Assembly (NCBI GenBank): GCA_021808485.1 | Contig: JAKBBN010000005.1 | Location: 5,571 to 69,570 of the forward strand | Reading direction: 5' to 3' | Length of the DNA stretch: 64,000 nt | Source of the DNA: Planctomycetota bacterium | Lineage (GTDB): Bacteria > Planctomycetota > Phycisphaerae > WQYP01 | In this document: piece by piece, positions 17,411 to 62,507 of the stretch | Layout of the letters: each line of letters starts with the position of its first letter | How positions within the stretch are numbered: position 1 is the first letter of the stretch | Translations under genes and position numbers: made by a program | Notes under the pieces: generated by a model | What the model was told of the DNA's origin: nothing | Databases searched by the model: none | What the model saw: only the letters and a program-made list of their open reading frames with translations

Positions 17411-19366
17411 GTGAACCAAAAGCAAAACAGACGTATACCGCGATGGTGGAACTGGGAAGATATCCTTCTGATTCTGCTGCTGGCGTGCACACTTTATTTT
17501 CCCGGCATCGGCCGGATTTCGCTGTTTGACCGTGACGAGCCGCGTTTCGCCGAGGCCGCCCGGGAAATGCTTAACAGCGGCAATTTTATTGTCCCCCGCT
17601 TTGACGGTGTGCTGCGGCCGGACAAGCCGCCGGTCATCTATTGGCTGATGGATATCAGCTACAAAATTTTCGGCGTAAGCACAATGGCGGCCCGTCTGCC
17701 GAGTGTGATATTTGGATCTTTAACACTGCTGCTGGTGTATTGGATGGCCGGCCGGCGATTCGGCCGACTCACCGGTCTCCTGGCGGCGATGATGCTGGCG
17801 GTGTCGGCGCTCTTTTTTGCGGAAACCCGCCTGGCGACGGCCGATTCCGTCATGATTTTTTTCACAACCCTGACCATGGGCTGCCTGTGGTCCGCATGGG
17901 ATGCCTGGAATGCATCGCGAGCCAATACCATGCCGCACCCACAGGTGCATAACCTGGCCAATGTTGAGAACGGCTCGCTGCTCAATGAGTATCCGATTGC
18001 GGGCGGCGGCGGCTTTTCGTGGGAAATGGCCGGTCTATTCTGGGCGGCAATGGCCGGCGGCATCCTGACCAAGGGTGTTACGCCGATTTTTGTAATTTGC
18101 ACCGTGCTGGCCCTCGGGCTGTTTACCGGCGGCTTGCCCGCCGCCTGGCGGCAAACCGGAATAAAACGCCTGCCGACGGCGCTGCCCCGGCTGTTTGCCG
18201 CCGCGATTTTCAAGGGCAACTGGGGCTGGTGCAAAAAACTTCGACCCCTGCGAGGCTTGGCGCTGCTGGCGGTTTTGATCTGTCCGTGGTTTGCGGCCGC
18301 GTGGATTGAAACCAGAGGCAAATTGATTGCGGAAATGCTGAATCAGAATCTGGTACAGCGCACAACCTCCGGCCTGCAGCACCATGGCGCCCCGCCCGGG
18401 TTTTATCTGGCGGTGATATGGGCCACGTTCTGGCCATGGAGCGTGCTGTTGGTGCCGGCGGGGTATCATTTGTTGCGCCGCGCCCGCGGCCGCACGCCAA
18501 TTATTCTGGATCGTACCGCCTATCAGTTTTTGCTCGCATGGATCGTACCGGCGTGGCTTGTGTTTGAATTGATCGTCACCAAGATGGTGCAATATGTTCT
18601 GCCTCTGTTTATTCCGCTTGCCATTATCTGTGCGGATACGCTGGTGCAAAGCTGGCATCGCATGACGGATGTGCTTAACGCCGGATGGTTTGCGGGCGCC
18701 CGATGGGTGTGGATGATCATCTGGATAATTCTGGGCGGAGGGCTGCTTCTGGCCACGTGGAAATGGCTGGCGCCCGCGGATGGCATGGAATTCCGCCTGA
18801 TCGTGCCTACCGGGGCTGCATTAATGGCCGTGGGTGTGGCGGGAGCCATGAGCTGGAATCGGCCGGCGTGGCCGTTTGTGACGGTGTTCACATTTGCCAT
18901 CGCCCTGTTGCTGGCGGATACCGTGTCCCTTCCGGCGGTGCGGCAACTGGATATCAGCAGGCGTGCGGGCATGGATATGCGGTTGCTGGCCCAGCGCGGC
19001 TATCATCTGGCGGCGGCCGGATACATTGAACCGACGCTTGTATTTTACTCCGGTGGAAATATCCAGCTGTTCGGCGGCGGCCCGCCGCTGGCGACAAAGG
19101 TTCCGTTCGCATCGCCGGGCCATCCTTTGGCTCCCAATGCCCTGAAATATGCCGTTGTGGTGAATCGCCGTACGCTGGCATGGCTGAAGCGGCATCATTT
19201 CGTTTTCTATCTGCATACCTGGTTTTCAGGAATTCAGGCCGCACGCGGCCGGTTTGTATGCATCAGTGTCATTACCAATGTTCCCCGCGGCCTTCCTGCC
19301 GGGAATTCAGTGCGGACACGACCGGGAACAGCGCCGCGGCAGGGCGGTCGCCACGCCGCTGGTTAA
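17411..19366 (+). CDS. Polytopic membrane glycosyltransferase, GT39/GT83 (PMT/ArnT-like) family
   Basis: Many TM helices, first periplasmic loop DRDEPRFAEAAREM (DExRYAE-type motif of ArnT/PMT), YWLM...; GTG start after AGGAAA. Confidence 0.75.
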   Translation: MNQKQNRRIPRWWNWEDILLILLLACTLYFPGIGRISLFDRDEPRFAEAAREMLNSGNFIVPRFDGVLRPDKPPVIYWLMDISYKIFGVSTMAARLPSVIFGSLTLLLVYWMAGRRFGRLTGLLAAMMLAVSALFFAETRLATADSVMIFFTTLTMGCLWSAWDAWNASRANTMPHPQVHNLANVENGSLLNEYPIAGGGGFSWEMAGLFWAAMAGGILTKGVTPIFVICTVLALGLFTGGLPAAWRQTGIKRLPTALPRLFAAAIFKGNWGWCKKLRPLRGLALLAVLICPWFAAAWIETRGKLIAEMLNQNLVQRTTSGLQHHGAPPGFYLAVIWATFWPWSVLLVPAGYHLLRRARGRTPIILDRTAYQFLLAWIVPAWLVFELIVTKMVQYVLPLFIPLAIICADTLVQSWHRMTDVLNAGWFAGARWVWMIIWIILGGGLLLATWKWLAPADGMEFRLIVPTGAALMAVGVAGAMSWNRPAWPFVTVFTFAIALLLADTVSLPAVRQLDISRRAGMDMRLLAQRGYHLAAAGYIEPTLVFYSGGNIQLFGGGPPLATKVPFASPGHPLAPNALKYAVVVNRRTLAWLKRHHFVFYLHTWFSGIQAARGRFVCISVITNVPRGLPAGNSVRTRPGTAPRQGGRHAAG

Positions 19367-19407
19367 CAGCGTCCGGCGAATATTGGCGGGTAATGGCCGC
19401 AGCGCCT

Positions 19408-20181
19408 ATGATGCTGGCAATGATTGAAAACAACGGGCCAAAACAAAATGCAATTGTTGTCCGCCAAGTCTGCAAGACATTTCCGCAGGGAACGGGCAGA
19501 ATCAGCGCCTTGGATGGCGTTACTATTGACGTTGCACCGGGAGAATTTGTGGCCATTATGGGGGCCAGCGGATCGGGTAAATCCACCCTGTTGCATTTGT
19601 GCGCCATGCTCGAAAAACCGGACAGCGGCAATATTCGGATAGCGGGACAAACTCTGGAAAATTTATCGGAGAAACAGGCGGTGGAATTCCGCCGCCGGAC
19701 GGTGGGCGTCATCTTTCAGCAGTTTAACCTTATTCCATCGCTTACCGTGGAGGAGAATATTTTGCTGCCCGTTCGGTTGGCCGGCCATTGCGGAAAGCCG
19801 GAGACGGACTGGAGCAATGAATTAATTGACCGGCTGGGACTTTCGACACGCCGCCGCAACCGGCCGGACGCGTTATCCGGAGGCGAGCAGCAGCGCACCG
19901 CCATTGCCCGGGCGCTGGTGATGCGGCCGCCGGTGATTCTTGCGGATGAGCCAACCGGCAATCTTGATTCCGCCAACGCGGGGCATTTCTGGAAATTGCT
20001 GGCCGGTGTGCTGCCCGCAGTGCAGGCTACCGTTCTGCTGGTGACCCATGAACCGACCGCGGCCATGCAGGCCCGGCGCGTGGTTGTATTGCGCGACGGC
20101 CGGGCCGCGGGCGAATTTTTCGTTCAGGATGTGCAACATGCAACTGCTTTGGCAGCTCGCTATCAGGAACTGGCGCATTAA
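19408..20181 (+). CDS. ABC transporter ATP-binding protein (YbbA/LolD-like)
   Basis: Walker A GASGSGKST, Q-loop, signature LSGGEQQRTAIARAL, Walker B ILADEPTGNLD; the ORF's 5' extension overlaps the upstream gene so an internal ATG (19393-19420) is the likely start. Confidence 0.85.
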   Translation: MMLAMIENNGPKQNAIVVRQVCKTFPQGTGRISALDGVTIDVAPGEFVAIMGASGSGKSTLLHLCAMLEKPDSGNIRIAGQTLENLSEKQAVEFRRRTVGVIFQQFNLIPSLTVEENILLPVRLAGHCGKPETDWSNELIDRLGLSTRRRNRPDALSGGEQQRTAIARALVMRPPVILADEPTGNLDSANAGHFWKLLAGVLPAVQATVLLVTHEPTAAMQARRVVVLRDGRAAGEFFVQDVQHATALAARYQELAH

Positions 20182-22753
20182 GCCCGGCCGCGGCATCCTG
20201 GCCGCGGCTGTTGTTTTGTTGGCCGTCGGACTCGTGACATTTACGGGACTGCTGCTGATGGCCGCACAGCGACATTTTCACCACCGGCTCACGGCATGGC
20301 TGGGCGGAACGGATGTACGGGTGCGACCGCTGGTGGCGCAGGCCGGCCGCAAGATTCCCGCAATAATGCTGGCAAATATTGCGCAGCTGCACGGAGTGGC
20401 GTTCTGCGGCGGAAAAACATCCGCATGGGCCAGGTTCAGCCATGGTGGACATGCATCCCTCGCCAAATTGGAAGCAATTTCCTGGCCGGAAATGAACCGG
20501 CTCGACCCGCTGATATTGTCCAGCGGCCGACTGCCCGCGGACGTGCGGGGGGGATGGGGCAACAGGATCGTACTGGATGGCGGCCTTGCCGGCAGCTTGC
20601 ATGTGCGGCCCGCGACGGTGATTAACGTGATAACGGCGTCGAAAAAGGCCGCGAATTTACAACTCTCGGGAATCGTGTCACGTTCCGCAGTCAAGCGATT
20701 TTTGCAGCCTCCGCGTGGTTATATATCAACACGATTGTTTCACCGGTTATTTCCGGCATCGGCGGGCTATTCTGAAATTGACATCCGCCTGAAGCGAGGT
20801 GTGAATAAGCAACTGTTTATCCGCGCCTTGCGGAAGTTTGCGGGTCCCGCCGTGACGATTGCATCGGCCGGAAACGCGCGAGCGGCATTCCATAAAGTTC
20901 GCGAGCTTTTCAGCCGGATCAGGATACTGGTGGTTGTGCCCATCGCGGCGGGCTCCGGTCTGCTGATTCTGGCGATCATGGTGACGGGTATTGCGGATCG
21001 CGTGCGCTATCTGGGGCAGTTACGCTGTCTGGGGGCCGGCCGCGGGCAGCTTGTCGGGGCAGTGCTGCTGGAGGCCGTTTTGCCGGCGATTGCGGGCATT
21101 GCGATGGGGATTGCCGGCGCCGCGGCTGCGGCGGTGCTGTTGGCCGGTCATTTCCCAACAATTTTCGGGGCTGTCGCCCTTACACCGGGCGCTTTGTTCT
21201 GGGGAATAGTGACCGGCATATTGGCGGCGGGAATCGGTGTGATTGTGCCTCTTGCCCAGGCTTTGCGTGCCTCGCCCATGGCGGCTGTGCGTATCGCCGC
21301 GGCCGGACCGCTTTATCGTCCGATCTGGCCGTTTCTTGCGTTCGGCGCGGCGTGTGTGGCGTTACAGCGGTTATTGTGGTTGATTCCGTCCAATCGGCTG
21401 GCGGTGGTGGTGTATGCGGTTGTTGGCGGACCATTGCTTTTTGCGGCGGCGTTTGCCATGGGGCCGGTACTGGCGGCCTGGCTGGAAGGATTTTCCCGCC
21501 GCCTGTTGCGGAGAATCTGGCGGATAAACGGGGAACTGCTTTATGGCACATGGCGGCGGAAGCCATTTCGTACCGGCTTTCTGATTGTGTCCATGATGTT
21601 CGCAACAGCGTTCCTGATTTCAATGCGAAGCCGCGGCGCCGGATTGATCAAATCTTGGGAGTTCCCCGCGCATTTTCCCGATGCCTTTGTCTTCAGCCCG
21701 GTATCGCCTCTGTCCGCAAAGCGACTGCGGCAACTGCCGGGAAAAGTCGCCGGTATCAAGGCCGCCGGCAGTCTGACTGCATTCTGGGTTGCGCCGGCCG
21801 CCCGGCGCGGCAACGCCGCACAGGCGACTGGAAATATGCTGTTTATCGCAGCGCAGCCGCGACGTTTCATGCGGATGGTGGGATTGCGGTTTTTGCGCGG
21901 CACACCGCAAACCGCGGAAAAGCTGCTGGCGCAAGGTTCCGGCGTGCTGGTGGCCACGCGACTGAGGCGCAGCGCGGGAAAAATTCCCCGGCATATTACC
22001 CTGCAAACGCTCTATGGCCCCACCACGTTCAAAGTGGCCGGCGTGGTCTATTCACGCGGGATGAGCTTGGCCGCCGGATACATGCGTGTAGGACACATAT
22101 TTCATGCCATGGCGGGAATTTCGATATTGGGAACGTTGCGGCAATCCGCGAAATACTTCGGCATTGCCGGCGCCAATATGGTGCTGCTTACGATCAAGCC
22201 GGGGTATAAAGGGATGGCTGTGGTGATCGCCGTCAAATCATTCCTGGGACGTTCCAGCCATCCATCATTTCTTTCCGATATGTTTAATTTTAAGGCCATG
22301 CAGTTGCGCGGCACTTCGGTTCGTGCAATGAAGAGAAAGCTGAATGCCGTGGTGCGGCGGGTCATGCATGCCTTGTCGCTGCTGGCGATTGCGGTGTTCG
22401 TGGCAGGTGGAATAGCATCCGGTTTATTGATTGCCGCGGACATTCGCTCCCGCCGACATGAACTGGGAATTTTGTATGCCGTTGGGGCCTCGCGCTGGCA
22501 GATATTAAGGCTTTTGTTGGCCGAGATTTCCTTAAACGTGGTGCTGGCGGTGTTCATCGGTATGTTGACGGCGATTTACATAACCTATATGGCCACACAG
22601 GTGGATCATCGCCTTATGGGATTCAATTCTTTGCTGGTTATTTCCTGGGCGGCGGCGCCCATCGCGCTGGCGGCGACGGCGGCGGCGGCCTTTGCCGGTG
22701 CGGCGCTGCCGCTGGCCCGCATGTTCCGGCGACCGGTATGTATTCGCGGATAA
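20138..22753 (+). CDS. ABC transporter permease, large FtsX-like family (YbbP-like, two FtsX modules)
   Basis: N-terminal MQLLWQLAIRNWRIKPGRGILAAAV typical of YbbP/FtsX-like permeases, ~870 aa with two clusters of TM helices; start overlaps ATPase by ~44 nt. Confidence 0.8.
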   Translation: MQLLWQLAIRNWRIKPGRGILAAAVVLLAVGLVTFTGLLLMAAQRHFHHRLTAWLGGTDVRVRPLVAQAGRKIPAIMLANIAQLHGVAFCGGKTSAWARFSHGGHASLAKLEAISWPEMNRLDPLILSSGRLPADVRGGWGNRIVLDGGLAGSLHVRPATVINVITASKKAANLQLSGIVSRSAVKRFLQPPRGYISTRLFHRLFPASAGYSEIDIRLKRGVNKQLFIRALRKFAGPAVTIASAGNARAAFHKVRELFSRIRILVVVPIAAGSGLLILAIMVTGIADRVRYLGQLRCLGAGRGQLVGAVLLEAVLPAIAGIAMGIAGAAAAAVLLAGHFPTIFGAVALTPGALFWGIVTGILAAGIGVIVPLAQALRASPMAAVRIAAAGPLYRPIWPFLAFGAACVALQRLLWLIPSNRLAVVVYAVVGGPLLFAAAFAMGPVLAAWLEGFSRRLLRRIWRINGELLYGTWRRKPFRTGFLIVSMMFATAFLISMRSRGAGLIKSWEFPAHFPDAFVFSPVSPLSAKRLRQLPGKVAGIKAAGSLTAFWVAPAARRGNAAQATGNMLFIAAQPRRFMRMVGLRFLRGTPQTAEKLLAQGSGVLVATRLRRSAGKIPRHITLQTLYGPTTFKVAGVVYSRGMSLAAGYMRVGHIFHAMAGISILGTLRQSAKYFGIAGANMVLLTIKPGYKGMAVVIAVKSFLGRSSHPSFLSDMFNFKAMQLRGTSVRAMKRKLNAVVRRVMHALSLLAIAVFVAGGIASGLLIAADIRSRRHELGILYAVGASRWQILRLLLAEISLNVVLAVFIGMLTAIYITYMATQVDHRLMGFNSLLVISWAAAPIALAATAAAAFAGAALPLARMFRRPVCIRG

Positions 22754-22967
22754 GGGCCGCCATCGGCCTGCGTCCCGGGCTGGTCTGGAACAGCCGGTCG
22801 CCTGCGAGGATTTGTGCGGCCCGCCGGTGTAATTGGCAGGCGGCGGTTGCTGTGCGATAATCCTTAAATGATCCGATCGATCGGAACGCATCTGTGCCGA
22901 CCGGAAGGTATAGATCAGGCGTGTTGGTAAAACGGAATTTGCGAAGCCTTCGGGCCGGGAGTTAATC

Positions 22968-23267
22968 ATGATTATCGCCAAAGTGGTGGGCAAGGTTGTG
23001 GCCACGGTAAAGGATGCCGGTTTTGAAGGCAAAAAGCTGGTGGTAGCCCATGCACATGTCATAAAGGATGGGCAGCTCGTTCCCGGTCAAAATATGATCA
23101 TCGCCAATGATGAACTCGGCGCCGGGGAGGGGGATATCGTGCTGATCACGCAGGGGAGTTCGGCACGAATTGCGCCGGGCATGAAAGCCTGCGCTACCGA
23201 TGCGGTAGTGATCGCCCTGATTGACCGGATTGATTCGGATGGCCGGCCGGTATTTAGCAAGGCTTGA
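22968..23267 (+). CDS. Bacterial microcompartment vertex protein (BMC-P; EutN/CcmL/PduN family) paralog 1
   Basis: MIIAKVVGKVVATVKDAGFEGKKLVV...ELGAGEGDIVLITQGSSARIA...ATDAVVIALIDRI aligns with PduN/CcmL along the full 99 aa. Confidence 0.9.
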   Translation: MIIAKVVGKVVATVKDAGFEGKKLVVAHAHVIKDGQLVPGQNMIIANDELGAGEGDIVLITQGSSARIAPGMKACATDAVVIALIDRIDSDGRPVFSKA

Positions 23268-23302
23268 CCCGACGGTATAACAGTCAGGAAAGGATCATTT
23301 GC

Positions 23303-23608
23303 ATGTTTATGGCCAGAGTCAAGGGAAATGTCACCGCGCCGGCGAAGCATCCAACTCTTCGCGGCCGACTGCTGATAATTCAACCGATTGATCCGATTGA
23401 CCGCAAAGAAACAGGCATTGCGCAGGTGGCGGTTGACACGCTGGGCGCGGGGATGAATTCCGTGGTGATGGCCACCAGCGACGGACGGGTGGTGCAGGAG
23501 ATGCTGAAGGCGGCGGATGATTGCCCGGCCCGTCTGGCGGTGGTGGCGATCGTGGATGCCGCGGACGCATCCGTCGCACCGGCAACACGCGCAGCAGGGG
23601 CAAAATAA
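23303..23608 (+). CDS. Bacterial microcompartment vertex protein (BMC-P; EutN/CcmL/PduN family) paralog 2
   Basis: MFMARVKGNVTAPAKHPTLRGRLLIIQPID...AVDTLGAGMNSVVMATSDG...ARLAVVAIVDA; ATG 8 nt after AGGAAAGGA. Confidence 0.88.
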   Translation: MFMARVKGNVTAPAKHPTLRGRLLIIQPIDPIDRKETGIAQVAVDTLGAGMNSVVMATSDGRVVQEMLKAADDCPARLAVVAIVDAADASVAPATRAAGAK

Positions 23609-23889
23609 TGTATTTGGGAAAAGTTATTGGCGGAATAGAGGCGAGGATGCGCGTGGCGGGGCTGGAATCACAGCGCCTTGCGGTAATTCAGCCCCTTGAT
23701 TTTGACCAAAAGCCCGTGCGGTGGACAATTGTTGCTGCGGATGTAGTGGGGGCATCGGTTGGCTCGCTGGTCCTGTACGAGGAAGGTCGCGAGGCGGCCA
23801 ATCCCTTTCACCCGGCATTGCCCGTGGATGCATGTGTGACGGCAATCGTGGAAAGCTACCAGTACGCCGACAGCCAAGCGTATGCATGA
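23608..23889 (+). CDS. Bacterial microcompartment vertex protein (BMC-P; EutN/CcmL/PduN family) paralog 3
   Basis: MYLGKVIGGIEARMRVAGLESQRLAVIQPLD...AADVVGASVGSLVLYEEG...VDACVTAIVES; start ATG overlaps the stop of paralog 2 (TAATG). Confidence 0.85.
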   Translation: MYLGKVIGGIEARMRVAGLESQRLAVIQPLDFDQKPVRWTIVAADVVGASVGSLVLYEEGREAANPFHPALPVDACVTAIVESYQYADSQAYA

Positions 23890-61846: not shown

Positions 61847-62134
61847 TCAGCGAAGCCGCGGTCTGCCGAAGGCGCGATTAAGGTTTTCCACGCTCACCGG
61901 TACCAGTCGCGTGCCGTTGAGGCTGTAAACCAGCATCAGGCCGTCACGGTTATCAATCACATTCAGGATTTCCACATTGCCGAAAGTAATACTGGATGTC
62001 AGCAATGTAATATCTGAACCGGTGGAAAGAACATCGCCATATGCCGGCTTCCGGGCGCTTTGATTAAGCACCAACAGGGCCAGTATCAGGGCGGTTACCG
62101 TAAGAAAGCCGATCATCAGATTCGAGCGTTTCAT
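61847..62134 (-). CDS. Small membrane-anchored/secreted hypothetical protein (paralog of next gene)
   Basis: N-terminal TM/signal MIGFLTVTALILALLVL then ~70 aa domain (GLMLVYSLNGTRLV) similar to the downstream 62202..62507 product. Confidence 0.45.
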   Translation of the reverse strand: MKRSNLMIGFLTVTALILALLVLNQSARKPAYGDVLSTGSDITLLTSSITFGNVEILNVIDNRDGLMLVYSLNGTRLVPVSVENLNRAFGRPRLR

Positions 62135-62201: not shown

Positions 62202-62507
62202 TCAGCGCATTCGTCGCTTGATCCGCTTTATATCCTGACTGATGCTGCGCGGCACAATTGGCACCGGATTGCGTGGATTGGCCTGCTGGAATATGTAGCC
62301 GCCCATCACGCCTGTATCCACGTTGTACAGGTAAACTACCCCACCCTGCTGTGACGTTCCGGATACTGCCATGTAATGTCCTCCCCGCAACGCCTGCGCC
62401 TGAGCCTGAGCCGTCGGCGTTAAACTCATACGCCCTGCGCAAAACGCGACGATCAGTGCGGCGTTCAGCCCGACCAGACCGCCAACCAACCAGTTTCTGG
62501 CATTCAT
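62202..62507 (-). CDS. Small membrane-anchored/secreted hypothetical protein (paralog of previous gene)
   Basis: N-terminal TM LVGGLVGLNAALIVAFCAG; GGVVYLYNVDTGVMGGYIF block parallels upstream paralog; internal ATG start (MNARNW). Confidence 0.4.
   Translation of the reverse strand: MNARNWLVGGLVGLNAALIVAFCAGRMSLTPTAQAQAQALRGGHYMAVSGTSQQGGVVYLYNVDTGVMGGYIFQQANPRNPVPIVPRSISQDIKRIKRRMR

Follow-up and report, generated by a model that had tools for sequence, protein, structure and literature searches.

A conserved tandem triplet of microcompartment vertex-protein genes in Phycisphaerae, probably a satellite shell operon

We analyzed a 64,000-nucleotide stretch of DNA from a Planctomycetota bacterium of the Phycisphaerae (assembly GCA_021808485.1, contig JAKBBN010000005.1), hereafter the window, which encodes three tandem genes for vertex proteins (BMC-P) of bacterial microcompartments (BMCs) at positions 22968-23889. 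The triplet is probably an autonomous satellite shell operon of a microcompartment that is fragmented or related to the Planctomycetes-Verrucomicrobia (PVM) type, and not a new system. The PVM type is the fucose/rhamnose BMC of these phyla (Erbilgin et al. 2014 as cited in PMC4207490; Sutter et al. 2021).

The three genes lie on the + strand. Paralog 1 (P1, 22968-23267) encodes 99 aa, paralog 2 (P2, 23303-23608, with the start ATG placed at 23303) encodes 101 aa, and paralog 3 (P3, 23608-23889) encodes 93 aa. All three were matched by the Pfam profile PF03319 (EutN_CcmL) over its full length (profile positions 1-83, 1-83, and 1-82 of 83), with scores of 80.2, 64.9, and 64.9 bits, respectively, against a gathering score of 25 bits. 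Their N-termini (MIIAKVVG, MFMARVKG, and MYLGKVIG) agree with the usual BMC-P start. The spacing is 35 nt between P1 and P2 and -1 nt between P2 and P3, where a TAATG at 23606-23610 joins the P2 stop TAA (23606-23608) to the P3 ATG (23608-23610). The mutual identity of the paralogs is 31-35%. A preliminary description of the window, made from its letters, had called three tandem, mutually divergent BMC-P genes of these lengths with a TAATG overlap of the last two, and the profile matches, identities, and coordinates bear this out.

In a phmmer comparison, P1-P3 gave full-length matches to the solved pentamers GrpN (4i7a), CcmL (4n8x/2qw7), EutN (2hd3), and the BMC-P of the Haliangium ochraceum (HO) shell (5v74), with E values from 1e-11 to 1e-6. 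The best solved relatives of P1 were GrpN 4i7a and CcmL, and that of both P2 and P3 was 5v74. All three proteins scored below the NCBIfam equivalog cut-offs for CcmL, EutN, and CsoS4 (best scores, 69 bits versus a cut-off of 125 for CcmL and 51 versus 118 for EutN), and because of these scores they are classed here, by sequence, as not being carboxysome or EUT orthologues. An AlphaFold2 model of P1 from a 24-sequence alignment of close homologues had a pLDDT of 43 and was unusable. In solved shells, the acidic residue of the pentamer loop GAGxG(E/D) forms a salt bridge to the arginine of the BMC-H (A/P)RPH motif (PMC13370225). P1 retains this hexamer-contacting loop (GAGEGD), and P2 (GAGMNS) and P3 (GASVGS) have it in altered form; across related loci, LGAxEG is invariant within the P1 GAGEGD motif.

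For class assignment, we compared the proteins by BLAST with one canonical PVM main locus (L046/L047), in which the order is phosphotransacylase (PTAC), three BMC-H genes, acetate kinase, a BMC-P of 112 aa, aldehyde dehydrogenase (AldDH), a BMC-P of 89 aa, a hypothetical gene, a BMC-P of 98 aa, aldolase II, and an LDH-like gene. The best match of P1 was the 112-aa PvmH-type protein (46% identity), that of P2 the 89-aa PvmK-type protein (37%, E=8e-16), and that of P3 the 98-aa PvmM-type protein (34%, E=6e-13), with an EGREAAxPFHP motif in both members of the last pair. Against this one locus, each of the three paralogs has its own counterpart, in the order PvmH, PvmK, and PvmM. Supplementary file 17 of Sutter et al. 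2021 names the pentamer classes as standard pentamer, 'special pentamer 1 / greys', and 'special pentamer 2 / yellows'. In these terms, P1 is PvmH-like and of the standard vertex pentamer class, P2 is PvmK-like ('special pentamer 1', grey clade), and P3 is PvmM-like ('special pentamer 2', orange/yellow clade). According to Sutter et al. 2021 (PMC8217296), grey and orange members are always found together, as two of the three in a 'BMC-P triplet', and P1, P2, and P3 supply the standard, grey, and orange members of such a triplet, as judged by their PVM best matches. Outside the clade, the closest P1 homologue whose context could be used (P0068) is encoded in a canonical PVM locus, in the order DeoR, PTAC, two BMC-H, AckA, BMC-P, AldDH, BMC-P, a hypothetical gene, BMC-P, and aldolase II. 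Because of this locus and the one-to-one pairing, we regard the triplet, on the strength of sequence comparison, as PVM-related by ancestry with the H-K-M order kept.

The exact P1 protein was found in several 'Phycisphaerales bacterium' metagenome-assembled genomes (MAGs; GCA_027323455.1 and GCA_027429695.1) and in many ENA and Logan assemblies, there beside the same neighbouring genes as in the window. All P1 homologues of at least 68% identity that carry an organism name come from 'Phycisphaerae bacterium' MAGs, and the next identity level is 46% or less. A scan of one genome per species placed the P1 family in 31 Phycisphaerae/Planctomycetota MAGs, and a metagenome scan added 13 triplet contigs; the unit recurs in about 40 loci. 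The gene order was P1-P2-P3 in every related locus, and all open reading frames (ORFs) of the triplet were intact, with gene gaps from -7 to 129 nt and a P1 length of 99 aa in 39 of 41 loci. The intact ORFs span amino-acid divergence down to 66% (P1), 37% (P2), and 44% (P3). All three paralogs are under purifying selection, with a median pairwise ratio of nonsynonymous to synonymous substitutions (dN/dS) of 0.10 for P1, 0.27 for P2, and 0.18 for P3, which are rough values as dS is near saturation. The P1 start codon is GTG in 12 of the 41 loci and ATG in the others, and that of P2 and P3 is always ATG.

The surroundings of the related triplets vary: ABC/FtsX and YajQ/HisG genes in the window, and HNH/CcsA, GH43, a UbiA-like gene, and others elsewhere. 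When neighbouring ORFs of 33 loci were clustered, the triplet alone was common to all of them, and the most frequent neighbours occurred in 8 of 33. A conserved partner gene beside the triplet was rejected, as no neighbour reached more than 8 of the 33 loci.

Two kinds of gene recur directly downstream of some related triplets. In seven loci, a co-oriented gene for a UbiA-family membrane protein of ~325 aa starts a few bases from the end of P3 (L020:10926-11912, L023:2880-3866, L025:4003-4989, L026:2619-3605, L030:10925-11911, L034:2040-3032, and L035:10906-11934). This UbiA prenyltransferase-family gene (PF01040, 43 bits, with an NDLLDxRRD motif) is placed like a fourth operon member; in L013 a copy lies ~6 kb off on the opposite strand, and the window has none. 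The MAG ZJ5.bin40 holds two different triplet-plus-UbiA copies, L025 (JAKBCC010000050.1) and L035 (JAKBCC010000015.1), each of which has a nearly identical counterpart in a further MAG (L026 and L030), and this reflects either a true duplication or a bin mixing two related species. In eight other loci, a conserved protein of ~107-117 aa with no Pfam match is encoded directly 3' of the triplet on the same strand (L014:2396-2785, L017:5517-5852, L018:10933-11295, L039:4467-4916, L040:4025-4474, L041:10893-11315, L042:1717-2097, and L043:3341-3610). Its start reads MF(Y/F)(I/L)GA(T/N)DQR(V/M/I)SVVN, a conserved DARLLAL(A/S)ALV stretch follows F(E/S)P(H/G)L, and the tail is rich in lysine. This protein may be an accessory BMC component specific to the lineage, and the window carries no copy.

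Upstream of P1, a promoter-like site, TTGGCA-N17-GATAAT with a TG extension (TGCGATAAT), was located at 22833-22861 (+), ~107 nt before the P1 ATG. It reads as a sigma-70-like -35/-10 pair, with 10 of 12 matches in a consensus scan plus an extended -10, and would act as a promoter. The pattern TTGGC./.TGGCA-N-TGnNATAAT occurs a single time on both strands of the 64 kb window, at this site. Of 37 distinct loci from unrelated genomic contexts, 26 have a matching -35/-10 arrangement ahead of the triplet, and 24 have the extended -10. That the motif accompanies the genes from locus to locus is in keeping with an independent transcription unit. On visual inspection, sigma-54 was rejected as a reading of TGGCA, since the spacing from GG to GC does not fit and sigma-70 with an extended -10 does.

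The site is followed by a leader at 22862-22967 (+), with a GGGAG ribosome-binding site immediately ahead of the ATG, that is shared with the closest relatives (L013, L049, and L001). The distance from the -10 to the start codon is ~105-115 nt in the source species, L013, and L049, whereas most other loci have ~35-45 nt. In the extra leader of these three, a small conserved GGCC-NNCG-GGCC hairpin directly precedes the GGGAG. The leader gave no Rfam match and no significant overall structure (z = -1.1), and a riboswitch was dropped for these reasons.

To cover hexamer genes, a BMC-H hidden Markov model (HMM) was built from five BMC-H genes annotated by Pfam (loci L044 and L046) and from PduA, EutM, and CcmK2, whose sequences aligned cleanly with the annotated genes. 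The model recovered all true BMC-H proteins at E <1e-40. Against the six-frame translation of the window, its best match had E=0.99, hence no BMC-H, and a tandem BMC-T query and a BMC-Tdp query gave no match. Neighbouring genes were annotated by Pfam scans of 30 large ORFs and precomputed Pfam calls for the central 20 kb. Within this set, PF00171, PF06130, PF00596, PF01791, and PF02502 were not found, that is, no aldehyde dehydrogenase, PTAC, class II aldolase, DeoC, or RpiB. Only housekeeping genes were annotated, namely TonB, MgsA, G6PD, release factor, EF-Ts, UMP kinase, RsmB, GH116, PMT, ABC/FtsX, YajQ, HisG, RbfA, IF2, NusA, PlsX-FabH-FabD-FabG-FabF, BipA, a GatA-like amidase, MetRS, GcpE, Ffh, and GH2. 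The triplet is flanked by ABC/FtsX on one side and YajQ/HisG on the other, and its distances to the two window ends are 23 kb and 40 kb.

For the same species, longer contigs reach ~10 kb before the window start and ~5 kb past its end. Their genes include TonB, GreA, DAHP synthase, an SSF transporter, ABC transporter genes, and PtsI, and there are no BMC genes among them. Overall, no hexamer or trimer gene was found within ~80 kb around the triplet in the source species, and neither BMC-H/T nor PVM main-locus genes were found within 10 kb of any of the ~40 related triplets. The preliminary description had placed the triplet between an ABC exporter and yajQ/hisG in a window free of BMC-H/BMC-T and core enzyme genes, and had named main-locus genes just outside the window, or a failure of the three proteins to hit PF03319, as what would overturn its view; the annotation agrees with the placement and the absence, the longer contigs hold no such genes, and all three proteins hit PF03319.

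We then considered the rest of the genomes that bear the triplet. The results of the profile searches rest on the best 120 of 8000 candidates. The BMC-H profile, run on a set of 5.8 billion proteins, returned only tandem BMC-T proteins among the matches listed, and the PVM aldehyde-dehydrogenase profile returned mainly Tepidisphaeraceae among the matches listed. The contexts of four proteins (P0189, P0150, P0113, and P0165) were all complete PVM or PVM-like loci of other lineages. The PVM-type loci examined include ones from Tepidisphaeraceae and from another Phycisphaerales MAG, and each has its own BMC-P genes split by other genes. Among ten NCBI-sourced hits, those whose clusters bore an organism name pointed to Acidobacteria. 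A comparison of NCBI accessions of P1-family proteins yielded no candidate partner protein. One 12,020 bp contig (P0169 / P0231) encodes a PVM-type BMC-T and aldehyde dehydrogenase under the NCBI label of a 'Burkholderiales bacterium' MAG; its proteins are 72-83% identical to Phycisphaerales proteins (L048), and nr names the aldehyde dehydrogenase Phycisphaera-like. The contig is probably mis-binned.

Read as a satellite operon, the triplet would be self-contained, with a promoter-like site followed by three genes, one for each vertex-protein class. By analogy with solved shells, each paralog would form a homopentamer and, at the five-fold vertices, close an icosahedral shell that consists of BMC-H hexamers and BMC-T trimers. 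The hexamer, trimer, and cargo genes would be encoded elsewhere in the genome, as in a fragmented BMC organization. By ancestry, the cargo would most likely be a PVM-type module of aldolase, aldehyde dehydrogenase, and phosphotransacylase, and its substrate may be fucose or rhamnose-like sugars. Some results weigh against this reading: the acidic position of the GAGxGE loop is not kept in P2 and P3; ~590 kb of flanks of related triplets contained no BMC-H or BMC-T gene; and the two profile searches (best 120 of 8000) and the four contexts gave no BMC-H/T gene in a triplet-bearing genome, which is a weak negative and not an absence.

The same results could be read as a clade that lacks BMC-H/T altogether, in which EutN/CcmL-fold proteins work outside a canonical shell, as a small oligomeric scaffold or as the partner of an unrecognised shell protein. 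The missing hexamer and trimer genes within 10 kb of the ~40 loci and within ~80 kb in the source species are consistent with this, as are the promoter-like motif of a unit that moves whole between contexts and the purifying selection on all three paralogs. However, a fragmented organization predicts just this absence of nearby hexamer genes. Furthermore, P1 keeps the hexamer-contacting GAGxG(E/D) loop under strong constraint, which argues for a hexamer partner. A pentamer-only organization is not described in the BMC surveys of Axen et al. 2014 (PMC4207490) and Sutter et al. 2021 (PMC8217296), and the latter reports the grey and orange classes always together within BMC triplets. We therefore hold a pentamer-only clade to be improbable. 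The preliminary description had taken the isolation to suggest either a satellite locus or a use of vertex proteins beyond a classical BMC; the former is retained as the most likely reading, whereas the latter found no positive support.

The triplet might also be the relic of a PVM locus stripped of its other genes and drifting to pseudogenisation, as it stands isolated among housekeeping genes, and a related Phycisphaerae isolate has lost its BMC locus entirely (PMC13514998). This explanation is strongly disfavoured and very unlikely, because the ORFs are intact in ~40 loci, across 31 species, with low dN/dS (0.10-0.27); the upstream motif and the ribosome-binding sites are conserved as well. 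Least probable of all, to the point of being barely credible, is an ordinary main locus with its hexamer and enzyme genes just outside the window, since the triplet is 23 kb and 40 kb from the window ends and the same-species contigs extend the BMC-free sequence by ~10 kb and ~5 kb. The locus definition of the catalogue, moreover, spans only 12 ORFs from a shell gene (Sutter et al. 2021).

If the satellite reading is true, the triplet is a well-sampled example of a fragmented BMC, with ~40 loci, a strict gene order, and a promoter-like motif that accompanies the operon. Twelve pentamers of a single kind are enough, and Sutter et al. 2021 flag it as unexplained that many BMCs nevertheless retain three vertex paralogs. 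The triplet would be suited to asking why this is so and also whether vertex proteins are regulated apart from other shell parts. For annotation, the locus is a warning that a BMC-P triplet alone identifies neither a PVM locus nor a substrate. It is a doubtful proposition that at least 31 Phycisphaerae species keep a separately promoted vertex cassette that lacks BMC-H/T genes or is functionally uncoupled from a shell. Were the genomes truly without hexamer genes, EutN/CcmL-fold pentamers would have a surprising role outside a canonical microcompartment; were the cassette uncoupled from the shell, separate expression of vertex proteins would control shell closure or size.

Other features were observed in the window and in the comparison set. 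Directly upstream of the triplet are an ABC ATPase ORF (19180-20181, +) and an FtsX-type permease ORF (20048-22753, +, 870-900 aa); their longest ORFs overlap by more than 100 nt, and the permease start given by the gene caller reduces the overlap to ~44 nt. On the - strand, two small genes of 95 and 101 aa with no Pfam match (~61847-62134 and ~62202-62507, coordinates converted by hand from L069) sit between a BioB-like radical SAM gene and a metallophosphoesterase gene, and were called in 3 of 3 assemblies of the species. An unrelated metagenome contig carries a compact BMC locus (L044:7477-10636) with an OMP-decarboxylase-family gene (PF00215), a BMC-H, a BMC-Tdp (CsoS1D_N), a 115-aa protein without a Pfam match, a BMC-P, and a second BMC-H with a 20-residue N-terminal extension. 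Its single BMC-P is 46% identical to P1 over 89% of the length, and a class II aldolase lies ~9 kb downstream.

Compared with the PVM system, the triplet shares each of the three pentamer classes once, the order H-K-M, and the phylum, and its nearest relatives outside the clade are of this type (identity 43-46% for P1, 37% for P2, and 34% for P3). In contrast, the BMC-P genes of the examined PVM and PVM-like loci are split by aldehyde dehydrogenase and usually by a hypothetical gene, and the examined PVM loci adjoin PTAC, BMC-H/T, and mostly acetate kinase, with a class II aldolase where the contig extends far enough. Here, the three genes form a tandem operon with none of those PVM genes within tens of kb, and the adjacent set that marks a PVM main locus (class II aldolase, acylating aldehyde dehydrogenase, PTAC, and BMC-H/T) was not found in the window or in ~15 kb beyond it. 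The PVM relation drawn in the preliminary description is thus upheld in part: the nearest relatives outside the clade are PvmH-type proteins in canonical PVM loci, but the BMC-P genes of PVM main loci are interrupted and not all three tandem. Its view of a BMC-P triplet as a PVM hallmark has to be given up, as triplets are reported in the PVM, HO, ACI, and FRAG1-8 types (Sutter et al. 2021, PMC8217296).

In HO type I of Haliangium ochraceum, as here, members of a BMC-P triplet lie outside the main shell locus, and the HO pentamer 5v74 is the best solved relative of P2 and P3. The HO arrangement differs in that its satellite is reported to hold an aldolase and only two of the three BMC-P genes, with the remaining one in the main locus, and in that the host belongs to the Deltaproteobacteria. 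Of the three points in the satellite definition of Axen et al. 2014 (PMC4207490), the triplet locus agrees with two, as it has a single type of shell domain (PF03319 only) and contiguous shell genes (gaps of 35 nt and -1 nt).

According to Sutter et al. 2021, the shell genes of fragmented (FRAG) types are spread over as many as six sites, the triplet is what these types have in common, and FRAG2, FRAG5, and FRAG8 include Planctomycetes (PMC8217296, Supplementary Data 2). The dispersed position of the triplet described here fits the scattered shell genes of FRAG1-8, whereas the FRAG triplets are reported as green/grey/orange and the nearest relatives of P1 are PvmH-type, of the purple clade. 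In FRAG7, the triplet stands alone at one site, with BMC-H and enzymes at another, and the PVM entry of Supplementary Data 2 shows a 'PVM organization with satellite loci'. Isolated triplets are already catalogued in these entries, and the triplet of the window is probably a further vertex operon of the satellite or fragmented-BMC kind.

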